Notes under the pieces: generated by a model
The model's input: the letters and a program-made list of their open reading frames with translations, nothing else
Databases searched by the model: none
Told to the model about the DNA's origin: nothing
Part shown: in pieces, positions 6,709 to 47,891 of the stretch
How the letters are laid out: every line of letters starts with the position of its first letter
Position numbering within the stretch: the first letter of the stretch is position 1
Made by a program: the position numbers and the translations under genes
Virus record (IMG/VR): IMGVR_UViG_3300007722_000019
Span: 1 to 54,251 of that record
Origin: a virus
Lineage: Duplodnaviria > Caudoviricetes
Reading direction: 5' to 3' (one strand)
DNA: 54,251 nucleotides

Positions 6709-7422
6709 ATGAACTATTTATACCAAATCACCAACCTTATAAACAACAAAATCTATGTAGGTGTTCATAAAACAAATAATATAGATGATGGTTATATGGG
6801 AAGTGGAAAAGTTATAGTATCGGCTATAAAGAAATACGGAATAGAGAATTTCAGAAAAGATATTTTAGAATTCTTTGATACATACGATCTTGTCTTGCAA
6901 AAAGAAACAGAAATAGTTACCGAAGAATTTCTGCAAAGACCCGATGTGTATAATCTCCGTAAAGGAGGTTCCGGCGGATTTGATTATATAAACAAGACAG
7001 GCCTTGCGTCTGTCGGCCGTGTAAAAGGATATAATAATCGAACGAAAGAATCATATGCTAAAATGTCAGAAGGCGGCAAGAAGGGTGCTGCTTCACTTAA
7101 TATTTCAGGTAACAGAACACCCGGTAATGCATCTCGTGCAGATTACGCCAGGTTGCATACGCAAACAAAAGATGCTAAAATTAAAAGAAAGAAGACATTA
7201 GCTGAAATAAATCATCAGCAAGGCACTAAGAATTCCCAGTTTGGAAAGTGCTGGATTACAGATGGTATCGAGAGTAAAAAGATAAAAAAAGAAGAATTAG
7301 AAAAATATGTTTCCGAAGGATGGAGACAAGGAAGAATAATGCACCGTTCGACTTCTGGTGAGGTCACCAGCCTTTCACGCTGGGTAGAGGGGTTCGAAAC
7401 CCCTACGGTGTACCAGTTATGA
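6709..7422 (+). CDS. GIY-YIG homing endonuclease (Seg-like)
   Basis: YLYQITN...IYVG...YMGSG; frame runs through tRNA-Glu. Confidence 0.85.
   Translation: MNYLYQITNLINNKIYVGVHKTNNIDDGYMGSGKVIVSAIKKYGIENFRKDILEFFDTYDLVLQKETEIVTEEFLQRPDVYNLRKGGSGGFDYINKTGLASVGRVKGYNNRTKESYAKMSEGGKKGAASLNISGNRTPGNASRADYARLHTQTKDAKIKRKKTLAEINHQQGTKNSQFGKCWITDGIESKKIKKEELEKYVSEGWRQGRIMHRSTSGEVTSLSRWVEGFETPTVYQL
7341..7415 (+). tRNA. tRNA-Glu(TTC)
   Basis: GCACCGT/ACGGTGT, CCAGC-CTTTCAC-GCTGG, CCA. Confidence 0.92.
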
Positions 7423-9203: not shown

Positions 9204-9282
9204 AGAATTCTTCCAGCACATCCTATGGATACAATTGGTTCAACTCCAGTCGGACTCGCAAGAGTACGTTACAAGAATTCTG
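9204..9282 (+). ncRNA. stem-CAGC family RNA containing a T-arm
   Basis: AGAATTCT-TCCAGCA...AGAATTCT-G; ATTGG-TTCAACT-CCAGT; ACTC-GCAA-GAGT. Confidence 0.6.
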
Positions 9283-9326
9283 TTTTGATTTTGATTACCC
9301 GGACTGTTGGTCCGCACAGGAATAAA

Positions 9327-9770
9327 ATGGCAAAGTTAGACTCGTCTGTAGTGTTTGTAGAAGATTGTACCTGCAGCGATGCAACAGTTAAGTCACATTT
9401 TTTGAAATTAGTACCTTATGTCTGTGTAGAGTGTGGGTGTAGTTCCCATAATAATAAACCGATAACATTACAACTTGACCATATAGATGGTAATCACACA
9501 AATTGCAAACGTGAAAATTTACGTCTGTTATGTCCTAGTTGTCATTCACAAACAGAGACATATGCTGGTCGCCAAAATTGGAACAATATAGTGGTAACTG
9601 ATGATGAATTGGAGACAGCTTTACTCAAAAGTGCTAATATCTCAATTGCCCTTAAGAAGGTTAAGTTAGACGTAGGGAGAACAGAATATTTTGGTCGAGC
9701 AACATTCTTAATACAAGAAAGAAAAATTGTAGTCGGCAGTAAACATAACACATATACTAACTTTTTTTAA
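9327..9770 (+). CDS. HNH endonuclease
   Basis: CVECG...LQLDHIDGNHTN...ENLRLLCPSCHSQT. Confidence 0.85.
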   Translation: MAKLDSSVVFVEDCTCSDATVKSHFLKLVPYVCVECGCSSHNNKPITLQLDHIDGNHTNCKRENLRLLCPSCHSQTETYAGRQNWNNIVVTDDELETALLKSANISIALKKVKLDVGRTEYFGRATFLIQERKIVVGSKHNTYTNFF

Positions 9771-10374: not shown

Positions 10375-11055
10375 ATGATTTACTATGTCTATGCGTATCT
10401 TAGGAATAAAGATTCAATCTCATCACACTCCGGCAGCCCTTACTATATAGGAAAGGGAAAGAATTTAAGAGCGTGTGAATATCACAGAAATGTTCCCTTG
10501 CCGAGTAATAGAAAAAATATTGTGATATTAGAATTTAATCTTACTGAAGTAGGTGCGTTTGCGATTGAACGCAGGATGATTAAATGGTATGGAAGAAAAG
10601 ATTTAGGAACAGGGATATTACTAAATAGAACAGATGGCGGCGATGGCGCAAGTGGGCACATTGGCCAGATTCCGTGGAATAAAGGCAAAAAGGGCTTGCA
10701 AAAAGCCTGGAATAAAGGTATGCCACATACCGCTGAAACAAGAAAGAAGATATCAATTTCCGGTACAGGCAGAAAACAATCGACAGAAACTATTGCGAAA
10801 AGATCCATTTCGATGCTTGGTAAAAATAAGGATAAGGTACGATCTGATGAACTGAAACAACAATGGGCTAATTCTCATAGAGGTAAAAGACATTCGGACG
10901 AACATAAGCAGAATATATCGGCCGCGCTCAAAGGTAGAGACGGCAGGGTTTGGACAGATGAACAAAAACAAAAACAATCTGTAGAAAGAAAGGGGAAATC
11001 TTGGACTCTTGCAAGGAGAGAAGCACAATCTAAAAGAAAGGAACGAGATGAATAA
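10375..11055 (+). CDS. GIY-YIG homing endonuclease with NUMOD3-like repeats
   Basis: YYVYAY...YYIGKG...[29 protein letters not shown] repeats. Confidence 0.85.
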
Positions 11056-11725
11056 TCAACGAAAAATTATAGAAATCCGTGCCGCAGAGGGTGGAGACGA
11101 TAGCAAACTATTCGTAGCTGACTTGGCACAAGCATACCGCAAACACGCTGACAGAGTCGGCTGAATTAATCGTATAACAAAATCCTTACCTGGTGAAATC
11201 TTTATAGAGGTTGTTGGCGCGGATCTTGTTCAACTACAAAATGAATCCGGCGGTCACAGGATACAACGTATACCGCCAACAGAGAATAAAGGTAGAGTTC
11301 ACACAAGTACGGTGACAGTAGCTATTACAGATCCGAATATACAGAAAAAAACGTATAAAGATGCTGACTTTAGTGTTAGTTGGTTCAGTGGCACAGGTGC
11401 TGGTGGGCAACACCGCAATAAACACCAAAATTCGTGCAGAATAACACACTTACTGACTGGTTTAGTGTCTACTGCACAGTGCAGATCAAGGCAAAACAGT
11501 CTAGAACAAGCTAAATCGTCTTTAGTGGAAGAGTTAGATGCAAAGTACAACAAACTTGCAAACAACGAGATTGCTATAGACAGAAAGCAACAAGTTGGCT
11601 CCGGAATGCGTGGAGACAAGATAAGAACTTATCGTTTTCAGGATGATGTCGTGAAAGACCACATTACTGGTAAGAATGGAAGTGTTAAACAAGTCCTAAA
11701 GGGACATTTTAACCTATTATGGTAA
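11048..11725 (+). CDS. class I peptide release factor, RF1-type (PxT), lacking domain 1, with in-frame TGA at 11162-11164
   Basis: [50 protein letters not shown]; one TGA at codon 39. Confidence 0.88.
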
Positions 11726-22345: not shown

Positions 22346-24280
22346 ATGGCAATATCCAAACTTTTTAAATCTAATTTCGACAAAACTGTTTTTAAGTCGA
22401 TGACTATAGACGAATATCTCGATATTTGTAAAAAAGATAAAATGGCATATGCTACTTCTGCAGAACGAATGGTAAAAGCCATCGGAGAACCGGAATTAAT
22501 AGACACAAGTAGAGATCCCCGACTAAGCAGAATATTTTCCAACAGAACTGTAAGGATATATCCGGCATTTAAAAATTTCTACGGAATGGAAGATGCTATA
22601 GAACGTATAGTTGGATATTTTAGGCATGCAGCACAGGGATTAGAAGAAAGAAAACAAATTCTATATTTGTTAGGCCCAGTCGGGACCGCTAAATCCTCCT
22701 TAGCCGAGAAACTAAAGGATTTGATGGAAATAAATCCTATCTATGTATTAGCAACAGATCAGGGCGAGATTAGTCCTGTATTCGAAAGCCCGTTGGGATT
22801 ATTTCCTAGTAAAACTTATGGCGATACCATGGAAACAGAATACGGTATTGATAAAAGATACTTGATGACAATTATTAGTCCGTGGGCATCTAAACGGTTA
22901 AAAGAATTTGATGGTGATATCAACAGATTTAGAGTTGTAAAACTTTCACCAAATAAGTTATCTCAAATTGCATTAATGAAGACAGAACCCGGTGACGAAA
23001 ATAATCAGGATATTAGTGCATTAGTCGGTAAGATGGACATTCGTAAATTAGAAAAATTTAGTCAGAATGATACCGATGCATATAGCTACAGTGGCGGACT
23101 ATGCCGTTCAAACCAGGGCCTATTAGAATTCGTCGAGATGTTTAAGGCACCAATTAAAGTCTTGCATCCATTATTGACTGCAACACAGGAAGGAAACTAT
23201 GCAGGGACAGAAGCAATAGGTGCTATTCCGTTCCAAGGTATAGTATTAGCCCACAGTAATGAATCTGAATGGAAAACATTTAGAAATAATAAAAATAATG
23301 AAGCTTTCTTGGATCGTATTTGTGTTGTTAAAGTTCCTTATTGCCTACGAGTTGACGAAGAAGCAAAGATCTATAAGAAGATGATTGCTGATTCTGGATT
23401 ACTCGATACACCTTGTGCTCCACAGACAATAGAAATGTTAGCGCAATTTAGCATGCTTACCCGCCTAACAGAGCACGAAAATAGCACACTCTTTAGTAAA
23501 ATGAGAGTATACAATGGCGAGAACATTAGAGAAAGTGATCCTAAAGCAAAGAGTATGCAAGAATACCGAGATGTAGCTGGTGTAGATGAAGGCATGTCTG
23601 GTACATCGACTCGGTTTGCTTATAAAATTCTTAGCCAAACATTTAACTTTACACCGGAAGAAATTTCTGCAGATCCCGTACACTTGATGTATGTGCTAGA
23701 AAATGCCATTAAGCGTGAGCAGTTTGGCGAAACATTAGAACAAGAATACCTAACACATATTAAGGCAGAATTAGCTCCGAGGTATGCAGAATTTCTTGGT
23801 AACGAAATACAGAAAGCATATTTGGAAAGCTACGGCGAATATGGGCAGAATATTTTTTCGAGATATGTAGATTATGCCGATGCATGGATTCAACAAGTAG
23901 AATTTAAAGATCCAGACAGCGGATTGCTAATGGATAGAAGCTTGTTAAATGTAGAACTTGAAAAAATTGAAAAGCCTGCCGGTATTGGGAATCCAAAAGA
24001 TTTTAGAAATGAGATTGTGAATTTTGTATTACGTGCAAAAGCAAAAACCGGACAAGATGTAAAATGGACAAGTTATGCTATCTTGAGAGATGTTATCGAA
24101 AAGAGAATGTTTAGTCAAGTAGAGGAACTATTACCAGTTATTAGTTTCGAGGGAAAGAAAGACAAAGCATTGGAGAAGAAGCATAACGATTTTATCTCTA
24201 GAATGACTTCGAGAGGATACACAACTCGGCAAATCAGGAGATTAGTCGACTGGTATATGAGAATCAGAAAAAGTTCTTAA
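22346..24280 (+). CDS. yeaG: PrkA/YeaG AAA+ serine protein kinase
   Basis: AAQGLEERKQILYLLGPVG..KSS, EFVEMFKAPIKVLHPLLTATQEGNY. Confidence 0.95.
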   Translation: MAISKLFKSNFDKTVFKSMTIDEYLDICKKDKMAYATSAERMVKAIGEPELIDTSRDPRLSRIFSNRTVRIYPAFKNFYGMEDAIERIVGYFRHAAQGLEERKQILYLLGPVGTAKSSLAEKLKDLMEINPIYVLATDQGEISPVFESPLGLFPSKTYGDTMETEYGIDKRYLMTIISPWASKRLKEFDGDINRFRVVKLSPNKLSQIALMKTEPGDENNQDISALVGKMDIRKLEKFSQNDTDAYSYSGGLCRSNQGLLEFVEMFKAPIKVLHPLLTATQEGNYAGTEAIGAIPFQGIVLAHSNESEWKTFRNNKNNEAFLDRICVVKVPYCLRVDEEAKIYKKMIADSGLLDTPCAPQTIEMLAQFSMLTRLTEHENSTLFSKMRVYNGENIRESDPKAKSMQEYRDVAGVDEGMSGTSTRFAYKILSQTFNFTPEEISADPVHLMYVLENAIKREQFGETLEQEYLTHIKAELAPRYAEFLGNEIQKAYLESYGEYGQNIFSRYVDYADAWIQQVEFKDPDSGLLMDRSLLNVELEKIEKPAGIGNPKDFRNEIVNFVLRAKAKTGQDVKWTSYAILRDVIEKRMFSQVEELLPVISFEGKKDKALEKKHNDFISRMTSRGYTTRQIRRLVDWYMRIRKSS

Positions 24281-24290
24281 TAGGAAATAA

Positions 24291-25568
24291 ATGTCAAATA
24301 TTATCGATAGAAGACTTAACCCGCGGGATAAGGCACTAAGGAATAGACAGAAATTTATCCAAAGAAGCAAGTCGCAGATCAAGCAATCGGTTAAAGATGC
24401 CATAGATTCTGGGAGTATATCGGATATAGAGGGCGGCAAAGTCAGAGTTAAAGTTGGCGGCATAGGCGAACCGTCATTTTCTATAAATCAAAAAACAGGC
24501 AATAAGAAATATGTTCTGCCCGGAAATAAAGATCATGTTGTAAATGACATCCAAGACAAGTCGGAAGATGGAGAAGGATCTGGTGGCAGTAAAGCCGGAC
24601 TCGGCGAAGGCGAGGATGACTTCGAGTTCGAATTAAATCGAGAAGAATTCCTGGACTTTATATTCGATGATCTAGAATTGCCGGACCTTGCTAAGAAGCA
24701 AATGAAGGATGTCACAAAGATCAAAATGAAAAGAGCCGGGTTTACAAACTCGGGTAATCCTACACAATTAGATATTTCGCGGTCTGTCAAGAATAGCATG
24801 GGCCGCCGCATTGGCCTGGGCCGTCCGAAAAATGAAGAAATAACAGAACTAGAAGAATTACTAGAAACCATTGATCCAGGCAGCGACGAATATAAAACCT
24901 TAACACTCAAACTTGAGGAACTGAGAAGATTACAAGTCTCAATTCCGTGGTTAGATCCATTTGATGTTAGATACAGGAACTTTACACCAACACCACAACC
25001 AATGACTCAAGCAGTTATGTTTTGTGTAATGGATGTTTCGGGGTCCATGGGACAACGAGAGAAAGATCATGCAAAAAGATTCTTTTTATTCCTTTTTATG
25101 TTTCTGTCCAGGAAATATCAAAAAGTAAATATTGTTTTTATTAGACATCATGAAAGTGCAAAAGAGGTAGACGAGGAAGAATTCTTTTCAAGCAAAGAAA
25201 GTGGCGGTACTGTAGTCTCGACTGCATTGGAACTTACTAAACAAATTATCGATTCTAGATACAATGTGAATGATTGGAACATATATGCTGCCCAAGCAAG
25301 TGACGGCGACAACTTTTCTAATGATACAGAGAAGACATTGTCTGTTATGAGAGAGCTATTGCCACTAGTCCAATATTTTGCCTATGTCGAGATTACAAAC
25401 TCATATCAATCGATAGGTTTTGCCGGCATCGCAAGCCCTGGCACAGACCTATGGAAAACCTACCGAGCATTAGTCGAGGAATATAAGAATCTTAATATGA
25501 GGAAAGTTTCAGAAGTGCAGGATGTCTGGAAAGTGTTTAAAGATTTATTTAAAAAGGAATCTGCATAA
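24291..25568 (+). CDS. yeaH: YeaH/YhbH family VWA protein
   Basis: IIDRRLN, AVMFCVMDVSGSM, FIRHH, AQASDGDN. Confidence 0.93.
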   Translation: MSNIIDRRLNPRDKALRNRQKFIQRSKSQIKQSVKDAIDSGSISDIEGGKVRVKVGGIGEPSFSINQKTGNKKYVLPGNKDHVVNDIQDKSEDGEGSGGSKAGLGEGEDDFEFELNREEFLDFIFDDLELPDLAKKQMKDVTKIKMKRAGFTNSGNPTQLDISRSVKNSMGRRIGLGRPKNEEITELEELLETIDPGSDEYKTLTLKLEELRRLQVSIPWLDPFDVRYRNFTPTPQPMTQAVMFCVMDVSGSMGQREKDHAKRFFLFLFMFLSRKYQKVNIVFIRHHESAKEVDEEEFFSSKESGGTVVSTALELTKQIIDSRYNVNDWNIYAAQASDGDNFSNDTEKTLSVMRELLPLVQYFAYVEITNSYQSIGFAGIASPGTDLWKTYRALVEEYKNLNMRKVSEVQDVWKVFKDLFKKESA

Positions 25569-25615
25569 TGGCGTATCTTAGCCTATGAAATGATAAATAA
25601 TATAAAAGGTGTAAC

Positions 25616-26503
25616 ATGAGATATCATTATGTATATATTACTGTAAATTTAATAAATGCCAATTTTTATATAGGCAAACATTCCAGTTTAAAAATAAACG
25701 ATAATTATAGCGGAAGTGGCACTCTAATTAAAGCTGCTATACGAAAATACGGACGAAAGAATTTTAAAACATCGGTATTAGTGTATTGTTTAAGCGAAGA
25801 AGCCGCGTATTCGTGCGAAGAAGAAATTGTTAATGAATTTTTAAATGATCAGGCATGCTACAATTTAGTAGAAGGTGGCCAAGGATTTACTAATGAATCT
25901 GGTAAACGTGCATCGTTAAAGGCACAAGATGCCGGATGGTTCGGATGGAAAAATCTAAAAGACACAGATCCCGATAAATTACTTGAAAATTGCAGAAATG
26001 GCAGAATCAAAGGTGCCGCAATTAACAGGGAGAATGGCACAGGTATGTTTGCATTTACATTTAACGAACGTAGTAATTGGTCGTCAAACTATAATTCGAA
26101 TAGAGTATGGATTACTAACGGTGTTATAGATAAACGAGTTAAGGATATTTGCCAGTTTCCATTAGGATATTATGTAGGTAGGTCAAATATTATAAATATA
26201 AGCCGTATCGGAATGAAATGTTGGACTAATGGTGATATTCATCTATTTGCGTTTAGTTCCCCCGGAGCAGAATTTTTTAATGGTATGATTAAGACTACTC
26301 CTACTGCTAAATTACCGTGGTGGAATAACGGCAAGCAAAATAAGAGATCGATAGCTATTCCGGGACCCGATTTTAATCCAGGTCGATTAAAATGGAAATC
26401 GAAAATCGTAGAATGCACATATTGCACCAAAACCGGCGGCGAGACTGCAATGAAACGACACCATTTCACTCACTGTAAATTTAGGGAAATAGTAAATGTC
26501 TAA
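25616..26503 (+). CDS. GIY-YIG homing endonuclease inserted in yeaH-ycgB junction
   Basis: YVYITVN...FYIG...YSGSG; WITNG/WTNG/WWNNG repeats. Confidence 0.85.
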   Translation: MRYHYVYITVNLINANFYIGKHSSLKINDNYSGSGTLIKAAIRKYGRKNFKTSVLVYCLSEEAAYSCEEEIVNEFLNDQACYNLVEGGQGFTNESGKRASLKAQDAGWFGWKNLKDTDPDKLLENCRNGRIKGAAINRENGTGMFAFTFNERSNWSSNYNSNRVWITNGVIDKRVKDICQFPLGYYVGRSNIINISRIGMKCWTNGDIHLFAFSSPGAEFFNGMIKTTPTAKLPWWNNGKQNKRSIAIPGPDFNPGRLKWKSKIVECTYCTKTGGETAMKRHHFTHCKFREIVNV

Positions 26504-27938
26504 ATTATTTAAAAATAATGAATGGGATTTTGATGTGTTGCGGAAAATAACCGATGCTTGTGCTAAAATAGCTGTTGAAGAATTACATTTAGATATATAT
26601 CCGATTCAGATCGAAATTATTGATTCATCACAGATGCTCGATGCATATAGTAGCAACGGGTTACCGATGATGTATAATCATTGGAGCTTTGGAAAGCATT
26701 TTTTACAACACGAGCATAGTTATAGGGGAGGTCATTCCGGATTGGCAATGGAAATTGTTATAAACAGTTCGCCATGCATATCATACCTAATGGAGGATAA
26801 TTCGGCTACTATTCAGACACTTGTAATTGCCCATGCCGGCTTCGGGCATAATCATTTTTTTAAAAATAATTATTTATTCAAGCAGTGGACAGACGCAGAG
26901 GGAATTTTAGACTATTTACAGTTTGCCAAAAATTATATAACTAAATGCGAGGAAAAACACGGACTGGCAGAAGTAGAGGCAACATTAGATGCATGCCATG
27001 CCATTTCGGACTACGGAGTCGATAGGTATAAGCGTCCTACCAAATTAAGTAAAAAGAAAGAAATTGAATTACAGAATGTCAGAGCAGATTATGTTCAACA
27101 GCAGGCCAATGAACTTTGGTCAACATTACATCAGAAAGAAAATAAGTCTGCTAAACTTCGAGAATTACATTTTCCAGAAGAACCACAAGAAAATATTATG
27201 TATTTTCTGGAGAAGAACAGTCCTGTACTAGAAAGCTGGCAACGAGAGATAGTAAGGATAGTCAGAAAGATTGCTCAGTATTTTTATCCGCAGCGGCAAA
27301 CAAAATTAATGAATGAAGGCTGGGCAAGTTTCACACATTTTTATATAATGAATAGACTATGGGAAAAAGGTCTTATAAATGACGGCAGCTATTTAGAGTT
27401 CATACATAGTCATAGTGGTGTTGTGACTCAGCTTCCGTATAATCACAAGTATTACAACGGATTTAATGTTTATGCGTTGGGCCTCGATATGTTTAATGAC
27501 ATTAAACGAGTATGTGAAAATCCTACAGACGAAGATAAGGCATGCTTCCCTCATTTAATTGGTCAACACTGGTTAGATGTCTGTTTAGATGCAGTTGCTA
27601 ATTATAGGGATGAAAGTTTTGTATCCCAATTCCTTAGTCCGACTGTTATGAAAAAATGGGGCTTATTTGAAATAACAAATAATGAACATGATAAGTTTGT
27701 AACTGTTTCTGGAATACAGGATATGCGTGGATATAACGCAGTCAGGAAGACATTAAGTAATCAATACAGCAGTACGTCTCATCAACCAAATATCCAAATA
27801 ATAAACGCAAACCTTGCAGGATCGCGCACTTTAGAGCTTAAATACACTGCTTATAACAATGCCAAGCTAAATAACAGCGGTAAAGTAATAAACTGTATTA
27901 AATACCTCTGGGGATACGATGTATCCTTGGATGGTTGA
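26496..27938 (+). CDS. ycgB: SpoVR/YcgB family protein
   Basis: HWSFGK, EIVINSSPCI, HNHFFKNN, YFYPQRQTKLMNEGWASFTH. Confidence 0.93.
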   Translation: MSKLFKNNEWDFDVLRKITDACAKIAVEELHLDIYPIQIEIIDSSQMLDAYSSNGLPMMYNHWSFGKHFLQHEHSYRGGHSGLAMEIVINSSPCISYLMEDNSATIQTLVIAHAGFGHNHFFKNNYLFKQWTDAEGILDYLQFAKNYITKCEEKHGLAEVEATLDACHAISDYGVDRYKRPTKLSKKKEIELQNVRADYVQQQANELWSTLHQKENKSAKLRELHFPEEPQENIMYFLEKNSPVLESWQREIVRIVRKIAQYFYPQRQTKLMNEGWASFTHFYIMNRLWEKGLINDGSYLEFIHSHSGVVTQLPYNHKYYNGFNVYALGLDMFNDIKRVCENPTDEDKACFPHLIGQHWLDVCLDAVANYRDESFVSQFLSPTVMKKWGLFEITNNEHDKFVTVSGIQDMRGYNAVRKTLSNQYSSTSHQPNIQIINANLAGSRTLELKYTAYNNAKLNNSGKVINCIKYLWGYDVSLDG

Positions 27939-28056: not shown

Positions 28057-28803
28057 ATGAACTACTTGTATAAAATAACTAACATAATAAACAATAAAAT
28101 TTATGTAGGGGTCCACCAAACTGACAGTATTGATGATAGATATATGGGATCAGGAACTGCAATAATTCGTGCCATAAAGAAATATGGAATAGAAAATTTC
28201 AGAAAAGATATATTAGAATTTTTTGATACATATGAAATGGCTTTAGAAGCTGAAGAACTTATAGTTGATAAGAAATTTATTTTACGTGAAGATGTGTATA
28301 ATCTCAGAACAGGTGGCATCGGCGGTTGGGGCCACATAAATTCGATTGACAAAGCTGACAGAATAAATATAAAATCATTTAAGGCTAAAATAGCATCAGG
28401 GGAACTAAAAGTAGGTGGTTCACAGCATTGGACAGAAGAAAATAGAAAAAAAGTTATAGACACTGCAAGAAAAAATGCAAATAAAGTAACTGGTGCTGCC
28501 CATACTGAATCTGCAAATAATAAACGAAATGCAACATTTAAGCGAATAGGGTTTTCCCAGGGTAAAAAGAATTCACAATATGGAAAATTTTGGATATCAA
28601 ATATAGAAACAAAAGAAGTAAGACGAACAGATAAAGGTGCAAATATTCCAGATGGCTGGGTAAGAGGTAAAAAGGGGCACGAAGTTAAAACGGCTTGGAT
28701 AAATAACGGAATAAGAGAAACCATTATTTTAATAGGTGATAAAGATTACTCTTTAAATAATGGATACATTGCAGGTAGATTAAGGAGAAATTCTGCTATT
28801 TAG
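28057..28803 (+). CDS. GIY-YIG homing endonuclease (Seg-like)
   Basis: YLYKITN...IYVG...YMGSG; close paralog of 6709 ORF. Confidence 0.85.
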   Translation: MNYLYKITNIINNKIYVGVHQTDSIDDRYMGSGTAIIRAIKKYGIENFRKDILEFFDTYEMALEAEELIVDKKFILREDVYNLRTGGIGGWGHINSIDKADRINIKSFKAKIASGELKVGGSQHWTEENRKKVIDTARKNANKVTGAAHTESANNKRNATFKRIGFSQGKKNSQYGKFWISNIETKEVRRTDKGANIPDGWVRGKKGHEVKTAWINNGIRETIILIGDKDYSLNNGYIAGRLRRNSAI

Positions 28804-28810
28804 TTAGCAA

Positions 28811-29077
28811 GTGTGTAACAGAGAATGTGCGACACGAGGATTCGACTTCCTCCACCTCCACCTAAGTTACTTAGGATACTTAGGTGGGGGTGAACTGGCT
28901 ATCGACCGCGCAGGCAAAATTACACATAGAATCGTCATGTAACCGACGTTAATGATACAAAAATAGTAAATGCAAACGCAAATACAAACGAGTTGAACAT
29001 GTCTGCTTTCGCAGAGATGGTCGCAGCCTAAGAAACTGCCACTCCGAGGTAGGACTTACCTTGTATAATAAATAACC
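28811..29077 (+). ncRNA. ssrA: circularly permuted two-piece tmRNA
   Basis: T arm + CACCTCC-A precedes GGGGGTG (28886); G3:U70; tag frame 28972-29031 ANANTNELNMSAFAEMVAA*. Confidence 0.88.
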
Positions 29078-29100
29078 AATGGGGCTTCGGCCCCATTTTT
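29078..29100 (+). terminator. intrinsic terminator
   Basis: AATGGGGC-TTCG-GCCCCATT-TTT. Confidence 0.85.
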
Positions 29101-29122
29101 ACGACTCCCAATTTATCGAAAT

Positions 29123-34016: not shown

Positions 34017-34091
34017 TCGCCAGTAGCTCAGCGGCCGAGCAAGAGCCTCTAAAACTCCTAGTCGTGGGTTCGAATCCCACCTGGCGAACCA
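34017..34091 (+). tRNA. amber suppressor tRNA (anticodon CTA)
   Basis: TCGCCAG/CTGGCGA, D arm GCTC/GAGC, loop CTCTAAA (CTA 34049-34051), GTGGG-TTCGAAT-CCCAC, CCA; anticodon stem has two mismatches. Confidence 0.82.
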
Positions 34092-36183: not shown

Positions 36184-36374
36184 AATCACAAATTGTAACA
36201 TTATTCGAAGATGAGAACGGTGAGACCGTTCTCCCATTGCCGGAAAGTTTGTTCGATGGCGATGAACCTTGGTTCCAAGGTGACACACTTACTTGGAAAG
36301 TCGAACATGACCAAGTGACCATTGTAAATGATTCCTGGAATGACAGACGAACGAAGCGGTTGATTGCTAAATAA
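36180..36374 (+). CDS. AbrB/MazE-like small protein
   Basis: ENGETVLPLPE...W.QGDTLTW. Confidence 0.5.
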   Translation: MKSQIVTLFEDENGETVLPLPESLFDGDEPWFQGDTLTWKVEHDQVTIVNDSWNDRRTKRLIAK

Positions 36375-36394
36375 GATTAGTATATAATGTATAA

Positions 36395-36823
36395 ATGACA
36401 GAGATTGAAGAATACATATTACTAAGTAAAGAACTACGGCAGGAACATCTTAGATTAGATGAACCCTGCATTGAGCGTGGTGGTCAAAGTATGTATTTGA
36501 AAGGGTTGCTTGCACATTTACATGATACAACAATACCATCAGGTAAGAAAATTCATGTGTGTCATGCATGCCATAATGGGAAATGTTCCAATCCCAATCA
36601 TGTTTATTGGGGCACTGCAAGTGAAAACTGTTTAGATAAAATGGCAAATGGCGGTAAGTCTCTTTGGGAGAACATGGTAAACAAATATGGTGAAGAAGAG
36701 GCTCGACGCATAAATGCGAAGAAGGGAAATAAAAATGGTTCTGGCAACAAGGGTAATACTTTGGCTGAGGAACACAAAGCAAATATATCTGCTAACTGGT
36801 CTGGCGGAAGAAAAAAGAAATAA
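36395..36823 (+). CDS. HNH endonuclease
   Basis: VCHACHN..CSNPNHVYWGT.SEN. Confidence 0.8.
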   Translation: MTEIEEYILLSKELRQEHLRLDEPCIERGGQSMYLKGLLAHLHDTTIPSGKKIHVCHACHNGKCSNPNHVYWGTASENCLDKMANGGKSLWENMVNKYGEEEARRINAKKGNKNGSGNKGNTLAEEHKANISANWSGGRKKK

Positions 36824-36824
36824 T

Positions 36825-36908
36825 GCGCGAGTGGTGGAATGGTATACACGGTGGTCTTAGAAGCCACTGCCGAAAGGATTAAGAGTTCGAGTCTCTTCTT
36901 GCGCACCA
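36825..36908 (+). tRNA. tRNA-Leu(TAG)
   Basis: GTGGT-CTTAGAA-GCCAC, long variable arm, CCA. Confidence 0.93.
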
Positions 36909-36948
36909 AATAATGTCTCCCAGGGGGCACCAAATGTAGAAAGATTAT

Positions 36949-37140
36949 ATGCAAACAATGTTTAGTGTAGATATGTGTGACAGAGACGGCGACGTTATCG
37001 AAGCTGGCATATTTATTCATATTGAGAACACAACAATCCTGAAATTCAAAGATACAGTCGAGTTAGAAGATTTCGCAAGAGGACTGTTGAGCATGATTGC
37101 AGAGATAAAAGAAAACTATCCGGAACATGCAGACGATTGA
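36949..37140 (+). CDS. hypothetical protein
   Basis: short ORF. Confidence 0.55.
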   Translation: MQTMFSVDMCDRDGDVIEAGIFIHIENTTILKFKDTVELEDFARGLLSMIAEIKENYPEHADD

Positions 37141-37334
37141 AGAGAGACATGTCGCTTGCCCATCTTGCAGAGGTTTTGGGGCAAAATGGGTAGGAAAAAC
37201 TCAAATGGCACTCAGACGTCGAGGCAACAATGGCCCCGTGTAATACTTGTCGAGGTAAGGAAACTATACCCGATAGTGATTATATCATTTATAAACTGTG
37301 TGGAAAGTTGCCAAGTAAGAATGATGAAAACTGA
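37127..37334 (+). pseudogene. DnaJ-type Zn-finger gene split by +1 frameshift
   Basis: CPSCRGFG in one frame, PCNTCRGK...DYIIYKL in +1 frame; paralog of next ORF. Confidence 0.5.
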
Positions 37335-37506
37335 ATATACAAGATACATTCAATGTACGGAGTGCGGCGGCCTGGGCCAGCAGATGACCGCTAAAATGTA
37401 TCCGAGTGGCCATACAGAGATATGGGAAGATTGTGAAATATGCGAAGGCATGGGTGAATTCGAGGAAGCAGATTATTTGGTATTAAAGTTAGAAGGAAGA
37501 GTTTAA
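37321..37506 (+). CDS. DnaJ-type Zn-finger small protein
   Basis: CTECGGLG...CEICEGMG. Confidence 0.65.
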   Translation: MMKTEYTRYIQCTECGGLGQQMTAKMYPSGHTEIWEDCEICEGMGEFEEADYLVLKLEGRV

Positions 37507-37694
37507 GAAGTTGTAGTTGTATCTGGCGGGAGCATTAGTCCCTACCATAATATGGTATATTTGATTTGGTGAAAGTCCAACTAGCAATCGAGCGCACAAA
37601 ACATAGCCCGCGGAGTTTCGATAACTACAACAACTTAGAAGGCTTGACAGCAGCAGTATTAAAAGGTAAAATAGACACAAGTTAAAAGAATATT

Positions 37695-37770
37695 GGGCGA
37701 TTATTTCAGCGGTTAGAATGATGCTTTTACATGGCATTGGTCGTAAGTTCGAATCTTACATCGCCCACCA
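37695..37770 (+). tRNA. tRNA-Val(TAC)
   Basis: GGGCGAT/ATCGCCC, ATGCT-TTTACAT-GGCAT, CCA. Confidence 0.9.
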
Positions 37771-37774
37771 AGAA

Positions 37775-38540
37775 TTCATATCCGAGCGTGGATATAAAAG
37801 TCCGTCTCCGAGCCAGGCAACATGACTCGCTAAAACAGTATTGCAGGTTTGGCCCTAGATCGCTACCTGCCGTGATTATGGCAGTATAATAAACTGGTCC
37901 GTGAATTGAAACGTTAGCAAACCGACTTTGAATATCGGCTGCGAAATACTAATTCGCATCCAGCCTACGATGTAAAAGGTTAGAGCCGGGCCTGGCAGTG
38001 GGGCATTGTAAAAATTCCACTCCGGTCACACCGTGAAGATGAGCGCCCAAACTATGGCGTTAAACTGATTCGTGAGTTGAAACGTTAGTCTGTGGACTCG
38101 GGTACTGCAGGCGAAGCACTAATTGTCGTCTCCCGATATATATGTACTAGAACTGGATTCTTGTATAGACGTTAAATGTAGTCGGTGCTTGCAAGTTTTA
38201 AGAAACTGCGGTCATAGACTTCCTGGACCATAACTCAGAAGCGGAGCTTATTTCTCCCGTAAACAATACGTGAGCTAAAACGTTAGTTGAAAATGCACAA
38301 TAGTGAGTAGACGAAGTTATAATCCACATGCTGACAATCCATGTAATTGATTGTCCGGTTGACTTCAAGCCGTTACGTCGAAGTGGGGGACAATTGGCTA
38401 ACCCATCACGAGTCGATTGCTTTTGTGGGGTTTAAAGGAAACAGCCCGAGTGAGTAGTAACACTATAGTCCATGGACTGAAAAACATATCGGGGGCCGAT
38501 CCGTTAGCGTTAGATGTTTGGAAAACCTGACGCAAGCTAT
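37775..38540 (+). ncRNA. large non-coding structured region with three internal repeats
   Basis: no credible ORF; CGTGARYTRAAACGTTAG at 37900, 38071, 38269. Confidence 0.55.
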
Positions 38541-38546
38541 AATTTA

Positions 38547-38620
38547 CTCGGTATGGTGAAATGGTATCACTTGTCGTTTGGGACGACAGAGCGTAGGTTC
38601 GATTCCTGCTACCGAGACCA
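38547..38620 (+). tRNA. tRNA-Pro(TGG)
   Basis: TGTCG-TTTGGGA-CGACA, CCA. Confidence 0.92.
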
Positions 38621-38668
38621 TTTTTGACTTGTATAGTAGTAACAGAGACGCTATACTTAATTATAATT

Positions 38669-39210
38669 AATGTTGCTGGTAAAACCGATAAATGCTTTCT
38701 CAGGCTGTGCAACACTAAAGTCAAATCGATCTTGAGGATGGTACACAGTAAAATGTGCCTCAATACTGCGCCGCAGTTTAACGGTGGTTAGGTACCTTTC
38801 CGTAATAAAGGTACAGGGTAGCATCACCTGTTATGCCGAGTCTCGCTTTAGATTCGTAAGTATTTCAGTCCGTATTAAAAGCTTTTATATACGGTCGCAT
38901 TTTGGGGATGCGTAAATGACATACTTAAATAGGGTTTACCTCCTATAGCACTATTTTAGTAAGTAACGGGCAGCGAAGAAAGAAATACGCCGGTGGATAT
39001 GCAGCAGCAGGTCGATAAACTGTCAGAGCCGCTTTCCTGTCTTAATGTATTTCCTCCTGAATGTTGGGAAAATGCGCAAAGAGAATTGTAATCTGAAAAT
39101 TACAATGGAAATACCGAGACGAGGTTTGGCTAAGTAGATGGATATTAGATTATCCTGTCGAAAACCGTTTGAGTCTTGAGAGTAGCTAGATGACCGATTA
39201 GCAAGACATT
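38669..39210 (+). ncRNA. ROOL-like large ornate RNA (~540 nt)
   Basis: 5'/3' ends pair (AATGTTGCTGGT/ATTAGCAAGACATT), nested long-range stems, promoter upstream, tRNA-adjacent. Confidence 0.6.
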
Positions 39211-39225
39211 CACTTATTTTTTATT

Positions 39226-39585
39226 ATGACGAAAGCAAAATATTACATTTATAGAAACTTACGAACTGGTGGCTTTTCTGTGAAACACAAAGGTTTGGTA
39301 GTTTGCCTTGCCCATTCGTTATATGGATTAGCAGTCGAGTTTAGGGTGAGTGAAAAGGGCAGGCAGAAGGTAATAAAAGAGAAACGGAAGAATGTGCATG
39401 CATTTGTCGTTGCAGATAAATACATGTTACATACGTATCCTGTTATGGACATTAGGGATATTGACAATAGCAAAAAAATAAGCTATAATCCATTCACTGA
39501 CGCACAGTTTATGTGTGATAACAGAAGAATTTATAGTGCTGAAGAAGTGTTTTTTCAGAATGGGTATTGTGTATTTGTAAAATGA
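39226..39585 (+). CDS. conserved phage hypothetical protein
   Basis: YRNL...FSVK...KEKRKNVHAFV. Confidence 0.7.
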   Translation: MTKAKYYIYRNLRTGGFSVKHKGLVVCLAHSLYGLAVEFRVSEKGRQKVIKEKRKNVHAFVVADKYMLHTYPVMDIRDIDNSKKISYNPFTDAQFMCDNRRIYSAEEVFFQNGYCVFVK

Positions 39586-39772
39586 ATTCGGGGGGATTAG
39601 TATAATGGTGTTTAGAAACGCTCCGAATGCAACATGCCAGAAATCTATTGATTATTTAGAAGAAAATATTTCAGAAATAAAAGACGACCGGGATACAGAT
39701 CATATTAACAGATGGATAAACAAGCACGGTTACAAAATTATAAGAAAGCTAAGTTAGATAAATAGAGAATAT

Positions 39773-43469: not shown

Positions 43470-43717
43470 TCGAAGTATCGTTTACGGAATACAGGTATTT
43501 CTCAGAATGCCCAATATGGTGGAGAAACTTCTGCACTGTTACATCTGGCGAATGGGTTTCTGCAGATGGTAGGAATCTATTGCTAATAGCGGAAATAGCG
43601 AAATTTTCTGGAAATATTGTGGATGGTGGGAATAATGAAGATGTAGATCACTTAGAATTTGAAACAGAAGAAGACTTTAATTTATTTAAAACATATTGGA
43701 TATTACGTGGCAAGTAA
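43466..43717 (+). CDS. hypothetical protein
   Basis: C-terminal FETEEDFNLFK.YW. Confidence 0.6.
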   Translation: MIEVSFTEYRYFSECPIWWRNFCTVTSGEWVSADGRNLLLIAEIAKFSGNIVDGGNNEDVDHLEFETEEDFNLFKTYWILRGK

Positions 43718-44102
43718 ACAGGTATTGGTTATGCGTAAGTTTATCGGTAAAGGATCGAGAATTGGAAAATACGTGGCACAAGGCGCCCACGCAAGTGTAG
43801 GAGCATTGTTTTCTCTTGGTGCAATAGATAAAGAAGCAAAGGAATTTGTTATCGATATTAGTAATCCATTCGTATATGAATGGGTTGTTGGCAACTTTAG
43901 AAAGATTACCTGTTATGTCGAAACTGATCAGGAATTGACCGACATTTACATTGCTGCAAGATCAGCCGGAATTGCATGTTCCATAATTGAAGATTCTGGA
44001 TTAACTGAATTCAATGGTGTAAAAACTCTGACCGCAATTGGCGTCGGGCCAGCCGACGAAGAATTGATAAACAAACTTACCGGGCATCTGCCCTTATTTT
44101 GA
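43707..44102 (+). CDS. pth2: peptidyl-tRNA hydrolase, Pth2 family
   Basis: KQVLVMR...GK.VAQGAHAS...RKI...IEDSGLTEF.G..TLTAIGVGP...TGHLPL. Confidence 0.9.
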   Translation: MASKQVLVMRKFIGKGSRIGKYVAQGAHASVGALFSLGAIDKEAKEFVIDISNPFVYEWVVGNFRKITCYVETDQELTDIYIAARSAGIACSIIEDSGLTEFNGVKTLTAIGVGPADEELINKLTGHLPLF

Positions 44103-46356: not shown

Positions 46357-46809
46357 ATGGGCAAATTACTTTTAAAAGAAACTATGGATAATGTTAGGTG
46401 GTATTGTTCCGATGCCCACTATATACACAATGGTCGTGGATATTATCAATATAAGTGGCCTAGCCCGGATTGGCCATTTAGGCATTATATTCATAGCGAA
46501 AAACTAACACAAACAGAAATGATTAAGATCAGGCGATGGATCGAAAATATTATTACCGATACAGTAATATTCGATAGCATTGATTGGAAATATAGAAGGT
46601 ACTACGGAGAAAGAACAGATTGGGAACATGGTTCGGAAGTTAGCAATACATGGTACAGGTTTAGTTTCGAGGATGAACATACTGCTACAATGTTTGCGAT
46701 TACATTCGCCCACTTAATACAGAAGCCCACAAATCATCATCCAGATCGATCAGAAGACGAGGAATGGTTAAAAACAAGTAACCAACATAAAACAAGGCAC
46801 GAATTATGA
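46357..46809 (+). CDS. hypothetical protein
   Basis: FSFEDEHTATMFAITF motif; sigma70-like promoter upstream. Confidence 0.65.
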   Translation: MGKLLLKETMDNVRWYCSDAHYIHNGRGYYQYKWPSPDWPFRHYIHSEKLTQTEMIKIRRWIENIITDTVIFDSIDWKYRRYYGERTDWEHGSEVSNTWYRFSFEDEHTATMFAITFAHLIQKPTNHHPDRSEDEEWLKTSNQHKTRHEL

Positions 46810-47891
46810 GAGAACTAGTTACAATTAGAAAAATAGCAGACTTAGTACCTATCGAGGGTGCTGATGCTATCGAGTTGGCTAAAATTGACGGCTGGCAATG
46901 TGTTGTGAAGATTGGTGAATTCAAAGTTGGTGACCCTTGCCTCTATTTTGAAATCGACAGCTTCATTCCACTATTGCCACAACTTGACTATCTGAAATCC
47001 AGAATGTTCAAACGAATGGGTGAACAAGAAGGTATGCGTGTGAAAACTGTTAAGTTGCGTGGTCAGCTTAGCCAGGGGTTGGCATTACCTGTAAGCATGT
47101 TCGTTGATCATTTCTTAGATTCGAAATTCAATGAAGGACAGGAACTATGCGAGTTCTTCTATTTTGGCGCAGACTTGACTGACTTTCTTGGTGTCCAGAA
47201 ATACGAAGCACCAATTCCTACAGAATTATCTGGAAACGTTAAGGGTAACTTTCCAACATTCATTCCTAAAACGGATCAGGACAGATGTCAGAATATTGCT
47301 TATAAAATCTTCGAAGAAAACAAAGACGCATTTTATGAAGTAAGTATGAAAATGGATGGCACTTCTTTTACTGCTTATCAGCGTGATGATATAGACGGAG
47401 TCTGTGGACGAAACTGGGAATTGACTATAGATGAGCACAATGTTGGTAACACACTTATCCGCATGTACCAGGATAGCGGATTACAGGCAGTATTGTGCAA
47501 ATTACGGCTGAATTTAGCAGTACAGGGCGAGCTTATGGGCCCGGGTATACAGAAGAACCGTGAGCAATTTAAAGCTCATAAGTTGTTTATATTCGACATG
47601 TTCGATATTGATAAGCAAGAATACTTGGCACCCAAAGCACGATTAGACATTTTAGGTAAACTGCAAAAAGATGGATTGAATATGGACATGGTTCAACACG
47701 TTCCAATCATTGCACATTCTGCAAATTTATATGACACACTCGGCATAACAACGACAGATCATCTGTTAACATTTGCTGAAGGTAAAAGTGTAAATCACCC
47801 AATCCGAGAAGGACTCGTTTTCAAGCGTAAGGATGGTAAATTTAGTTTTAAATGCATATCAAATCACTTCTTGCTTAAATCTTCCGATTGA
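46806..47891 (+). CDS. ATP-dependent RNA ligase, DRB0094/Rnl5 family
   Basis: PIEGADAIE, YFEIDS, KMDGTS, QGELMGPGIQKN, REGLVFK. Confidence 0.9.
   Translation: MRELVTIRKIADLVPIEGADAIELAKIDGWQCVVKIGEFKVGDPCLYFEIDSFIPLLPQLDYLKSRMFKRMGEQEGMRVKTVKLRGQLSQGLALPVSMFVDHFLDSKFNEGQELCEFFYFGADLTDFLGVQKYEAPIPTELSGNVKGNFPTFIPKTDQDRCQNIAYKIFEENKDAFYEVSMKMDGTSFTAYQRDDIDGVCGRNWELTIDEHNVGNTLIRMYQDSGLQAVLCKLRLNLAVQGELMGPGIQKNREQFKAHKLFIFDMFDIDKQEYLAPKARLDILGKLQKDGLNMDMVQHVPIIAHSANLYDTLGITTTDHLLTFAEGKSVNHPIREGLVFKRKDGKFSFKCISNHFLLKSSD

Follow-up and report, generated by a model that had tools for sequence, protein, structure and literature searches.

What occupies the 776 nucleotides (nt) between the genes for tRNA-Val and tRNA-Pro in the virus record IMGVR_UViG_3300007722_000019 is the question raised by this locus. 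The record, a 54,251-nt entry of IMG/VR that is referred to here, in its full length, as the window, has a CheckV completeness of 14%, which implies a phage of several hundred kilobases (kb); it comes from a giant (jumbo) freshwater phage. ARAGORN and Rfam recognize in it 30 tRNA genes, a permuted transfer-messenger RNA (tmRNA), and a tRNA(cta) of the TAG-suppressor type. Only a few large, highly structured RNA classes of bacteria and phages are known, among them GOLLD, ROOL, OLE, raiA, and HEARO. A sequence-only reading of the window had proposed that this interval encodes a large structured noncoding RNA (ncRNA) with three tandem copies of one module, and strong covariation across the copies and their homologs bears this out. 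The interval very probably represents a real, selected family of structured RNAs, carried by uncultivated jumbo phages. The RNA and its two neighbors are located as follows.

37695-37770, + strand: tRNA-Val(tac) with an encoded CCA (ARAGORN; Rfam tRNA model, 62.2 bits); the RNA begins at the next base
37771-38546, + strand: the whole structured RNA, approximately 776 nt, bounded by the two tRNAs, with three full units and a degenerate fourth
38547-38620, + strand: tRNA-Pro(tgg) (ARAGORN and Rfam)

Tandem units of the RNA

The repeat is defined by an 18-nt pattern, CGTGARYTRAAACGTTAG, which is found on the + strand without mismatches at 37900-37917, 38071-38088, and 38269-38286. It has no further match in the window, even with up to 3 mismatches; its chance expectation is 0.25, and none of 100 shuffles contains at least three matches. 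A repeat search of the window returns the same three copies, spaced by 171 and 198 nt, as had been described from the sequence alone. The elements then listed after each copy, a variable hairpin, RCGAAR...TAAT, an ATGTA-containing segment, and CCGG/CTGG, are all present and correspond to hairpin P2, the joiner, the 3' strand of hairpin P3, and the hairpins that follow (see below). The placement between tRNA-Val and tRNA-Pro, without a credible open reading frame (ORF), also stands: ARAGORN calls both flanking tRNAs, and the longest ORF within 37775-38540 does not exceed 56 amino acids (aa) under translation table 11. With TAG read as Gln, the longest ORFs reach 89 aa (+ strand) and 107 aa (- strand) and are unconvincing.

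The three copies are reproduced in independent data. An independent Logan assembly, of a run that is possibly that of the source sample, shows no differences from the window over 37500-38900, and contigs of runs X4 (salt lake) and X7 (estuary) are identical to it over the parts of the copies that they cover. The triplication is therefore not an assembly artifact.

Each unit follows the same plan. It starts with hairpins Ha, Hb, and Hc, split by A-rich UAAAA-like linkers, and ends with the module. The 5' part of the module consists of hairpin Hd, with the loop consensus YUURUYAU, an A-rich linker, and a 5-base-pair (bp) pseudoknot, in which the Hd loop pairs with the five linker bases immediately 5' of the core. 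Its middle part contains Pa, a 3-bp stem with the invariant 8-nt loop GAGYURAA, followed by UUA and the long hairpin P2; its 3' part contains the joiner CGAA(A/G)..AAU, hairpin P3, and UWAA. In total, the module has approximately 20 invariant unpaired nucleotides. It thus reaches approximately 35 nt further upstream than the sequence-only reading had placed it, into Hd and the pseudoknot, and a degenerate fourth unit (the 3' domain), likewise absent from that reading, follows copy 3. The units are listed below with their matches to R1, a covariance model of the module.

37771-37951, + strand: unit 1 (R1 match at 37889-37979, 72.1 bits, E = 5e-15). Upstream hairpins Ha at 37778-37783/37790-37795 (by eye) and Hb at 37809-37812/37826-37829; Hd at 37867-37871/37880-37884; pseudoknot of 37874-37878 with 37895-37899; Pa at 37900-37913; P2 at 37917-37942; joiner at 37943-37953
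37952-38122, + strand: unit 2 (R1 match at 38060-38151, 70.2 bits). First hairpin at 37957-37960/37969-37972, which also serves as P3 of module 1; Hd at 38043-38047/38056-38060; 3' strand of the pseudoknot at 38066-38070; Pa at 38071-38084; P2 with the loop UCGG
38123-38320, + strand: unit 3, the most divergent copy (R1 match at 38258-38350, 53.1 bits, E = 2e-10). Hd at 38243-38246/38254-38257; 3' strand of the pseudoknot at 38264-38268; Pa at 38269-38282; P2 with the loop AAUA
38321-38546, + strand: unit 4, the 3' domain (weak R1 match at 38479-38571, 18.9 bits, E = 0.04). P3 of module 3, a hairpin with the loop CGUUA, a long-range helix to CGGGGGCC, a hairpin tip formed by the palindrome TCCATGGA at 38469-38476, and, at the end, the degenerate module CCGTTAG-hairpin-CAAGC..TAAT

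The window copies contain every element of the working definition of the family (Hd, the pseudoknot, Pa of the form CGY-GAGYURAA-RCG, UUA, P2, and the CGAA..AAU joiner), which further calls for more than 50 bits with R1 and a position downstream of tRNA-Val(tac). The P2 loop reads NUCGAAA(A) in 9 of the 9 single-copy modules aligned in alignment A3; it is replaced by CUCGAAUAU in contig G011 and is absent from module A of contig G004.

Three other structural proposals were considered and rejected. A closing helix between UUCGC at the 5' end of the unit and GCGAA of the joiner competes, by eye, with covarying outer pairs of P2 and is also broken by an A-C mismatch in L039, L044, and L049. The GUA that follows Ha and P3, viewed as a T-box-like valine specifier, fails because its G belongs to the closing pair of the stem and because the triplet is not conserved, being AUA in unit 1 and GUU elsewhere (both by eye). 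A group-I-like reading of TATAGTCC is not sustained by the homologs, which show a mere covarying hairpin stem at this position.

Homologs, covariation, and copy number

Homologous RNAs are found in viral and metagenome collections on 13 contigs besides the window, in approximately 11 distinct versions. Scans with exact patterns recover the viral contigs G001 (136 kb), G002 (369 kb, complete), and G003 and the metagenome contigs L039, L041, L047, L042, L043, L044, L046, and L049; R1 adds diverged members in G004 (385 kb, complete) and G011. True modules score 53 to 97 bits with R1, the window copies (72.1, 70.2, and 53.1 bits) included. In viral contigs, the 15-mer AGTGAGTAGTAACAC occurs at 23 loci; L005 and L007 alone are genuine, and the remaining 21 are chance matches. 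The metagenome pattern scan gives 18 loci, of which 9 are true, one of them (L035) being the contig of L007; the loci L036, L037, L038, L040, L045, L048, L050, L051, and L052 were discarded as chance matches. A search anchored on a neighboring 90-aa protein leads to the same three contigs and to none further. Beyond these, a pattern scan of 185,579 prokaryote species genomes returns 5 loci that score 12 to 19 bits with R1 and are taken as chance, and a blastn search for distant matches of 37500-38900 to 50,697 GenBank phage records finds only a tRNA match. Across the whole records of 15 related phages, R1 matches are limited to G004 and G011; the rest of these records are mostly fragmentary, so that absence there shows little.

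The support for the structure comes from substitutions that preserve pairing. In 15 module sequences, 87.0% of the cells are paired, versus 22 to 48% with slid partners; 11 of the 15 pairs changed on both sides, and none of 500 shuffles reaches the covariation score. For Hd, the pseudoknot, and Pa taken together (15 sequences), the corresponding values are 93.7% versus 19 to 50%, with 8 of 12 pairs changed on both sides and, again, a score reached by 0 of 500 shuffles. These percentages are inflated, since fitting to the model partly shaped alignments A5 and A7 and the structure in A8 was derived from the same sequences; moreover, the sequences are related, so that the shuffle control does not amount to a probability. 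Pseudoknot pairs vary across the sequences as UA/AU/GC/GU and AU/GC/GU. Pa is invariant in the first 12 sequences and changes from U-A to C-G in the three modules of G004 and G011. RNAalifold predicts 20 pairs for the whole unit (10 units), 14 of them with compensatory changes, and in unit 1, the hairpins Hb, Hd, Pa, and P2 are among the elements predicted with such changes. For the 3' domain (5 homologs), it predicts 49 pairs, 20 with compensatory changes; the palindrome TCCATGGA is invariant in 5 of 5 type-A 3' domains, and the stem beneath it covaries. The check that had been suggested along with the original proposal, covariation across the copies and their homologs, is thus answered by both the pair counts and RNAalifold, which support the helices.

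The family has a well-defined position. tRNA-Val(tac) precedes the RNA in all 9 loci for which upstream sequence is available. On the downstream side, 11 of 12 versions have tRNA-Pro(tgg), which follows at once or with a few small genes in between; L049 has no tRNA-Pro(tgg) within 900 nt. The core is identical among phages whose neighboring 90-aa proteins share 37 to 45% identity. Two complete genomes of related phages, G005 and G006, contain no module, and their syntenic site, with the conserved 90-aa gene followed by tRNA-Pro, lacks both tRNA-Val and the RNA. The joint absence of tRNA-Val(tac) and the RNA indicates that they behave as one cassette.

The number of units in the RNA varies, and the three-copy form is specific to the lineage of the window; relatives contain one or two modules.

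L031 (on G001) and L039: one module, with tRNA-Pro within 7 to 40 nt
L005, L007, L042, L043, L044, L046, L049, and G011: one module and a degenerate one
G004: two modules
Window: three modules and a degenerate one

The RNA measures 776 nt in the window, approximately 500 nt in relatives, and approximately 190 nt as the one-unit RNA of G001. The degenerate module is weakly detected by R1 in 4 of the 9 RNAs with a 3' domain (E of 0.001 to 0.4), and G004 has a full second module at its position. A relative from run X5, approximately 95% identical to the window, covers 37952-38540 and has an apparent tRNA 3' end directly before 37952; this junction places the unit boundary at 37951/37952 and indicates that a form without unit 1 exists. 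In a close relative from run X4, 34 additional bases at 38545/38546 separate the RNA from tRNA-Pro, and the terminal hairpin before 38518 differs, which adds to the evidence for plasticity at the 3' end of the RNA.

The units of the window share 40 to 55% identity among themselves and 41 to 54% with the units of other phages. Being no closer to each other than to those of other phages, with the core and its helices kept in each, the copies are old and each is under selection; they do not stem from a recent duplication.

Proposed role and alternatives

The best explanation, and one that is somewhat probable, is that 37771-38546 encodes one large structured ncRNA, a stable species processed from the tRNA transcript, with modules that serve as binding or assembly units. 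The pseudoknotted module, its conservation in each copy, its variable number, the obligatory linkage to tRNA-Val, and the setting among translation and RNA-repair genes fit a stable RNA with repeated binding or assembly sites best. A candidate promoter is located as follows.

37644-37672, + strand: sigma-70-like promoter candidate TTGACA-17-TAAAAT, matching 11 of 12 consensus positions, 22 nt 5' of tRNA-Val

Of 9 loci compared, 6 (the window, L005, L007, L031, L039, and L049) have a TTGACA-17/18-TAAAAT site 5' of tRNA-Val. Another promoter-like site (10 of 12 positions) lies inside the RNA itself, at 38294-38323, and there is no terminator-like site on the + strand within 36300-39700. Of the 90-aa "MAWP..." gene, the window retains only a 3'-terminal remnant, at 37641-37694, the rest being deleted; relatives keep this gene between a small upstream RNA and tRNA-Val, and the promoter-like TTGACA-17-TAAAAT of the window survives within the remnant.

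Transcription of the RNA would start, jointly with that of the tRNA array, at the promoter-like site upstream of tRNA-Val, and the nucleases that mature tRNAs would release it as a stable species. In established tRNA maturation, RNase P cleavage and 3' processing of flanking tRNAs would free a discrete RNA; here, 3' processing of tRNA-Val would set the 5' end and RNase P, acting at tRNA-Pro, the 3' end. Each module might then fold independently into a binding site for a protein, a tRNA, or a second copy of the RNA, which is the least certain step, and the RNA might act as a multivalent platform whose valency follows the number of units. This platform mechanism is tentative, and its correctness in full is rather doubtful. 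A broader idea, which is speculative and on balance unlikely, is that of a new "ornate" class of large phage RNAs in which the module is the active unit, a core for tRNA or protein capture, catalysis, or assembly, and phages tune its number from one to three or more. In this view, as the cassette travels with tRNA-Val(UAC), the RNA may act on tRNA or on the translation apparatus during host takeover.

One protein in the window was considered as a partner. A gene at 50125-51561 (+ strand) encodes a DUF2828+DUF7788 protein that matches phrog_850 ("RNA-binding protein," E = 1e-146) and shares 73 to 81% identity with proteins of many phages of 360 to 385 kb; it is preceded by a 940-nt gap (49184-50124) without a convincing ORF. 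A phmmer search of this protein against PDB finds nothing. A Ro60-type link of the RNA to the DUF2828/DUF7788 protein is unsupported by the co-occurrence data.

Several observations weigh against a selected RNA with the proposed role. The homologs amount to only approximately 11 distinct versions, and L043, L046, and L049 are 85 to 96% identical. By minimum free energy, the 776 nt fold no more stably than shuffled sequences do (z = -0.43, 6 of 20 as good), a comparison that leaves out pseudoknots and speaks against a signal of a purely thermodynamic kind. The region contains 10 promoter-like sites, versus 9.2 expected from shuffles, and no RNA run is among the sequencing runs found to contain the sequence. 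The P2 loop motif UCGAAA of the single-copy relatives is lost in copies 2 and 3 of the window, so that these two are perhaps not equivalents of copy 1. Finally, the gene for the DUF2828/phrog_850 protein lies 12 kb from the RNA and is also present in the two complete genomes that lack the RNA, and R1 has no matches within 10 kb on either side of the DUF2828 gene in 31 related loci.

Among the alternatives, the most durable, although improbable, is an RNA-only self-assembling particle like those of ROOL and GOLLD, held together by loop-loop or palindrome contacts, with a geometry or valency that changes with the number of units. The RNA shares the ecology described for GOLLD and ROOL in the portion of Kretsch et al. 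(bioRxiv 10.1101/2024.12.08.627333) drawn on here, namely, phage-encoded and beside tRNA islands. The sizes of 776 nt and approximately 500 nt, the many helices, the many invariant unpaired bases, and the invariance of the palindrome TCCATGGA at its hairpin tip would all suit such an assembly. However, the palindrome is absent from the subgroup of L043, L044, L046, and L049, the RNAs of L031 and L039 have no palindrome-bearing domain at all, and the GOLLD and ROOL models do not match.

Nearly as plausible, and improbable as well, is a cis-acting spacer, whose structure would aid the folding, protection, or ordered processing of tRNA-Val and tRNA-Pro and whose excised form would be functionless. 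In the window, L031, L007, and G011, the RNA starts immediately after the CCA of tRNA-Val; in the window and L031, it ends 0 to 6 nt before tRNA-Pro. It is also gained and lost jointly with tRNA-Val. Against this, the approximately 20 invariant unpaired nucleotides, the pseudoknot, and a length of 500 to 780 nt far exceed what a tRNA spacer needs, and the other approximately 29 tRNAs of the window do without such an element. In addition, protein genes separate the RNA from tRNA-Pro in L005, L007, L042, G004, and G011, and a small ORF separates it from tRNA-Val in L005.

A decoy that mimics a host target, either a tRNA-like structure or the 5' handle of a CRISPR RNA (crRNA), and titrates a tRNA-directed nuclease or a CRISPR effector has a low probability. 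Pa, with its 3-bp stem and 8-nt loop, and the NUCGAAA(A) loop of P2 in the single-copy modules are features that may resemble the D and T arms of tRNA, and copy 1 carries AUUGAAAC, which may be similar to crRNA handles. The variable copy number would suit titration, as more units mean more decoy sites, and the window is rich in translation and RNA-repair genes (a protein with an RF-1 domain, PTH2, an RNA ligase, tmRNA, and 30 tRNAs). Yet neither ARAGORN nor the Rfam tRNA, tRNA-like, and Y-RNA models recognize the module, calling only the flanking tRNAs, and the T-loop-like loop is lost in copies 2 and 3 of the window.

Self-cleaving ribozyme modules that cut a polycistronic tRNA transcript are very improbable. 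The module is compact and pseudoknotted, with invariant unpaired bases, and small phage ribozymes do occur in tandem next to tRNAs; however, no Rfam ribozyme family matches the window or L004, L005, and L007, the unit boundaries have no conserved candidate cleavage dinucleotide, and RNase P and the tRNA 3' nucleases already serve the tRNA ends. An artifact or a coding origin, that is, a misassembled repeat or small proteins read by means of the TAG suppressor tRNA at 34017-34091 from the ORFs of 89 and 107 aa, is extremely improbable, because independent contigs of other runs reproduce the region, helix substitutions are compensatory, homolog indels are not multiples of three, and the ORFs cross conserved hairpins in different frames.

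Genomic surroundings and known large RNAs

Two further structured RNAs flank the locus. The first, at 37505-37642 (+ strand), is unannotated and approximately 130 nt long; the stem GTTGTAG/CTACAAC closes it, and GGTGAAAGTCC lies in its interior. L005, L007, and L031 conserve this RNA, which precedes the 90-aa gene in relatives and has no Rfam match; RNAalifold (4 sequences) predicts 28 pairs, 10 of them compensatory. The second lies downstream of tRNA-Pro at approximately 38729-38900 (+ strand), starts with ATCTTGAGGATGG...CCTCAATACT, and is common to L031 and L039; RNAalifold (3 sequences) predicts 42 pairs, 12 of them compensatory, and again no Rfam family matches. The remaining features of interest are as follows.

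22346-27935, + strand: PrkA, DUF444, and SpoVR-like gene set (E = 1e-150 or better), an unusual cargo for a phage, with a 295-aa ORF without a Pfam match between the DUF444 and SpoVR genes
34017-34091: tRNA(cta), TAG suppressor type (ARAGORN)
28771-29122, 34017-34091, 11312-11722, 43659-44099, and 46806-47888: translation and RNA-repair kit, comprising the permuted tmRNA, tRNA(cta), an RF-1-domain protein, PTH2 peptidyl-tRNA hydrolase, and an RNA ligase
1185-1835, 6709-7419, 9225-9767, 10375-11052, 28057-28800, and 36395-36820: six genes that resemble homing endonucleases (GIY-YIG, HNH, or NUMOD), dispersed among the tRNA genes

PrkA, DUF444, and SpoVR form a stress or starvation cluster in bacteria. 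The ORFs of the window are normal under table 11, so that any recoding of TAG would be partial or confined to late genes. The homing-endonuclease-like genes likely drive the gain and loss of the cassette at the tRNA-Val/RNA locus.

The RNA matches no Rfam family. A cmscan search with all 4,227 families of Rfam 15 at the gathering score finds none within the RNA interval; at E values up to 10, the segment 37500-38900 yields only the two tRNAs and two chance-level matches, and at E values up to 5, the search of L004, L005, and L007 yields nothing on the homologous RNA. The comparison with Rfam that the sequence-only reading had called for therefore leaves the novelty of the RNA intact. The proposed likeness to raiA and GOLLD is not supported as family membership: GOLLD, ROOL, raiA, and the Rfam ribozymes have no match in 37500-38900 (E of up to 10) or in L004, L005, and L007 (E of up to 5). 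No description of the motif or of the RNA, core sequence included, was found in the literature, supplementary motif lists not being covered.

The raiA motif RNA is found on chromosomes of Firmicutes and Actinobacteria. Its resemblance to the window RNA goes no further than a vague similarity of short strings rich in purines, and the window RNA differs in being located in a phage tRNA array. The tRNA cluster of phage T4 encodes stable non-tRNA RNAs of approximately 140 nt or less that are freed by tRNA-processing nucleases. By this description, they resemble the window RNA in being stable non-tRNA species within a phage tRNA cluster and are set apart by their small size and by having no repeated module.

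YrlA, in the part of Chen et al. (2014, PMC4201824) that served as a source here, is an ncRNA of modular build that has tRNA-like hairpins and a short motif, GNCGAAN0-1G, thought to bind Ro60; certain phages carry it, and tRNA enzymes process it. Copies 2 and 3 of the window read GGCGAAG and GACGAAG, which fit this motif, whereas by eye it is absent from copy 1, L005, L007, L031, and G004. Moreover, the CGAA motif is placed toward the 3' side within the module, in contrast to the position of the YrlA motif near the 5' end. None of the 54 window ORFs scanned matches TROVE, and the Ro60 gene within approximately 4 kb on the same strand that characterizes YrlA is not found.

The closest analogs are GOLLD and ROOL. 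In the consulted portion of Kretsch et al. (bioRxiv 10.1101/2024.12.08.627333), these are large phage or prophage RNAs near tRNA islands, and the large RNAs studied so far have turned out structurally surprising, RNA-only cages being one example. As far as it is described there, GOLLD resembles the window RNA in being phage-encoded, in or beside tRNA islands, with tRNAs directly attached, and in spanning hundreds of nucleotides with many helices and pseudoknots, the 3' part being better conserved and the 5' part more variable. The window RNA thus shares with GOLLD the trait of being encoded by a phage or prophage beside tRNA genes; the GOLLD covariance model, however, does not match it, and the conserved motifs are different. 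It is built of repeated units, numbering from one to three or more, and its family is found only in contigs of jumbo phages from aquatic and sediment-type metagenomes. Similarly, ROOL is, in the same portion of that source, a large phage or prophage RNA near tRNAs, from which the window RNA differs in having no match to the Rfam model and in consisting of tandem pseudoknot-hairpin modules.

The window RNA is a further, independent large structured RNA, contributed by jumbo phages. Unusually, it is made up of a recurring module that is conserved independently and is present in different numbers among relatives. This variation provides a natural dissection, from the approximately 190-nt one-unit RNA of G001 to the four-unit RNA of 776 nt, and a handle for structural and binding studies, and the joint gain and loss with tRNA-Val(UAC) ties the RNA to the unexplained biology of phage tRNA arrays. 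The general kind, a large structured phage RNA beside tRNAs, is known from GOLLD and ROOL to the extent that the cited portion of the preprint describes them; the family, the pseudoknot module, and the build from a variable number of tandem units are new. The reading favored here is that of a new large phage RNA class, which parallels GOLLD and ROOL without belonging to either.

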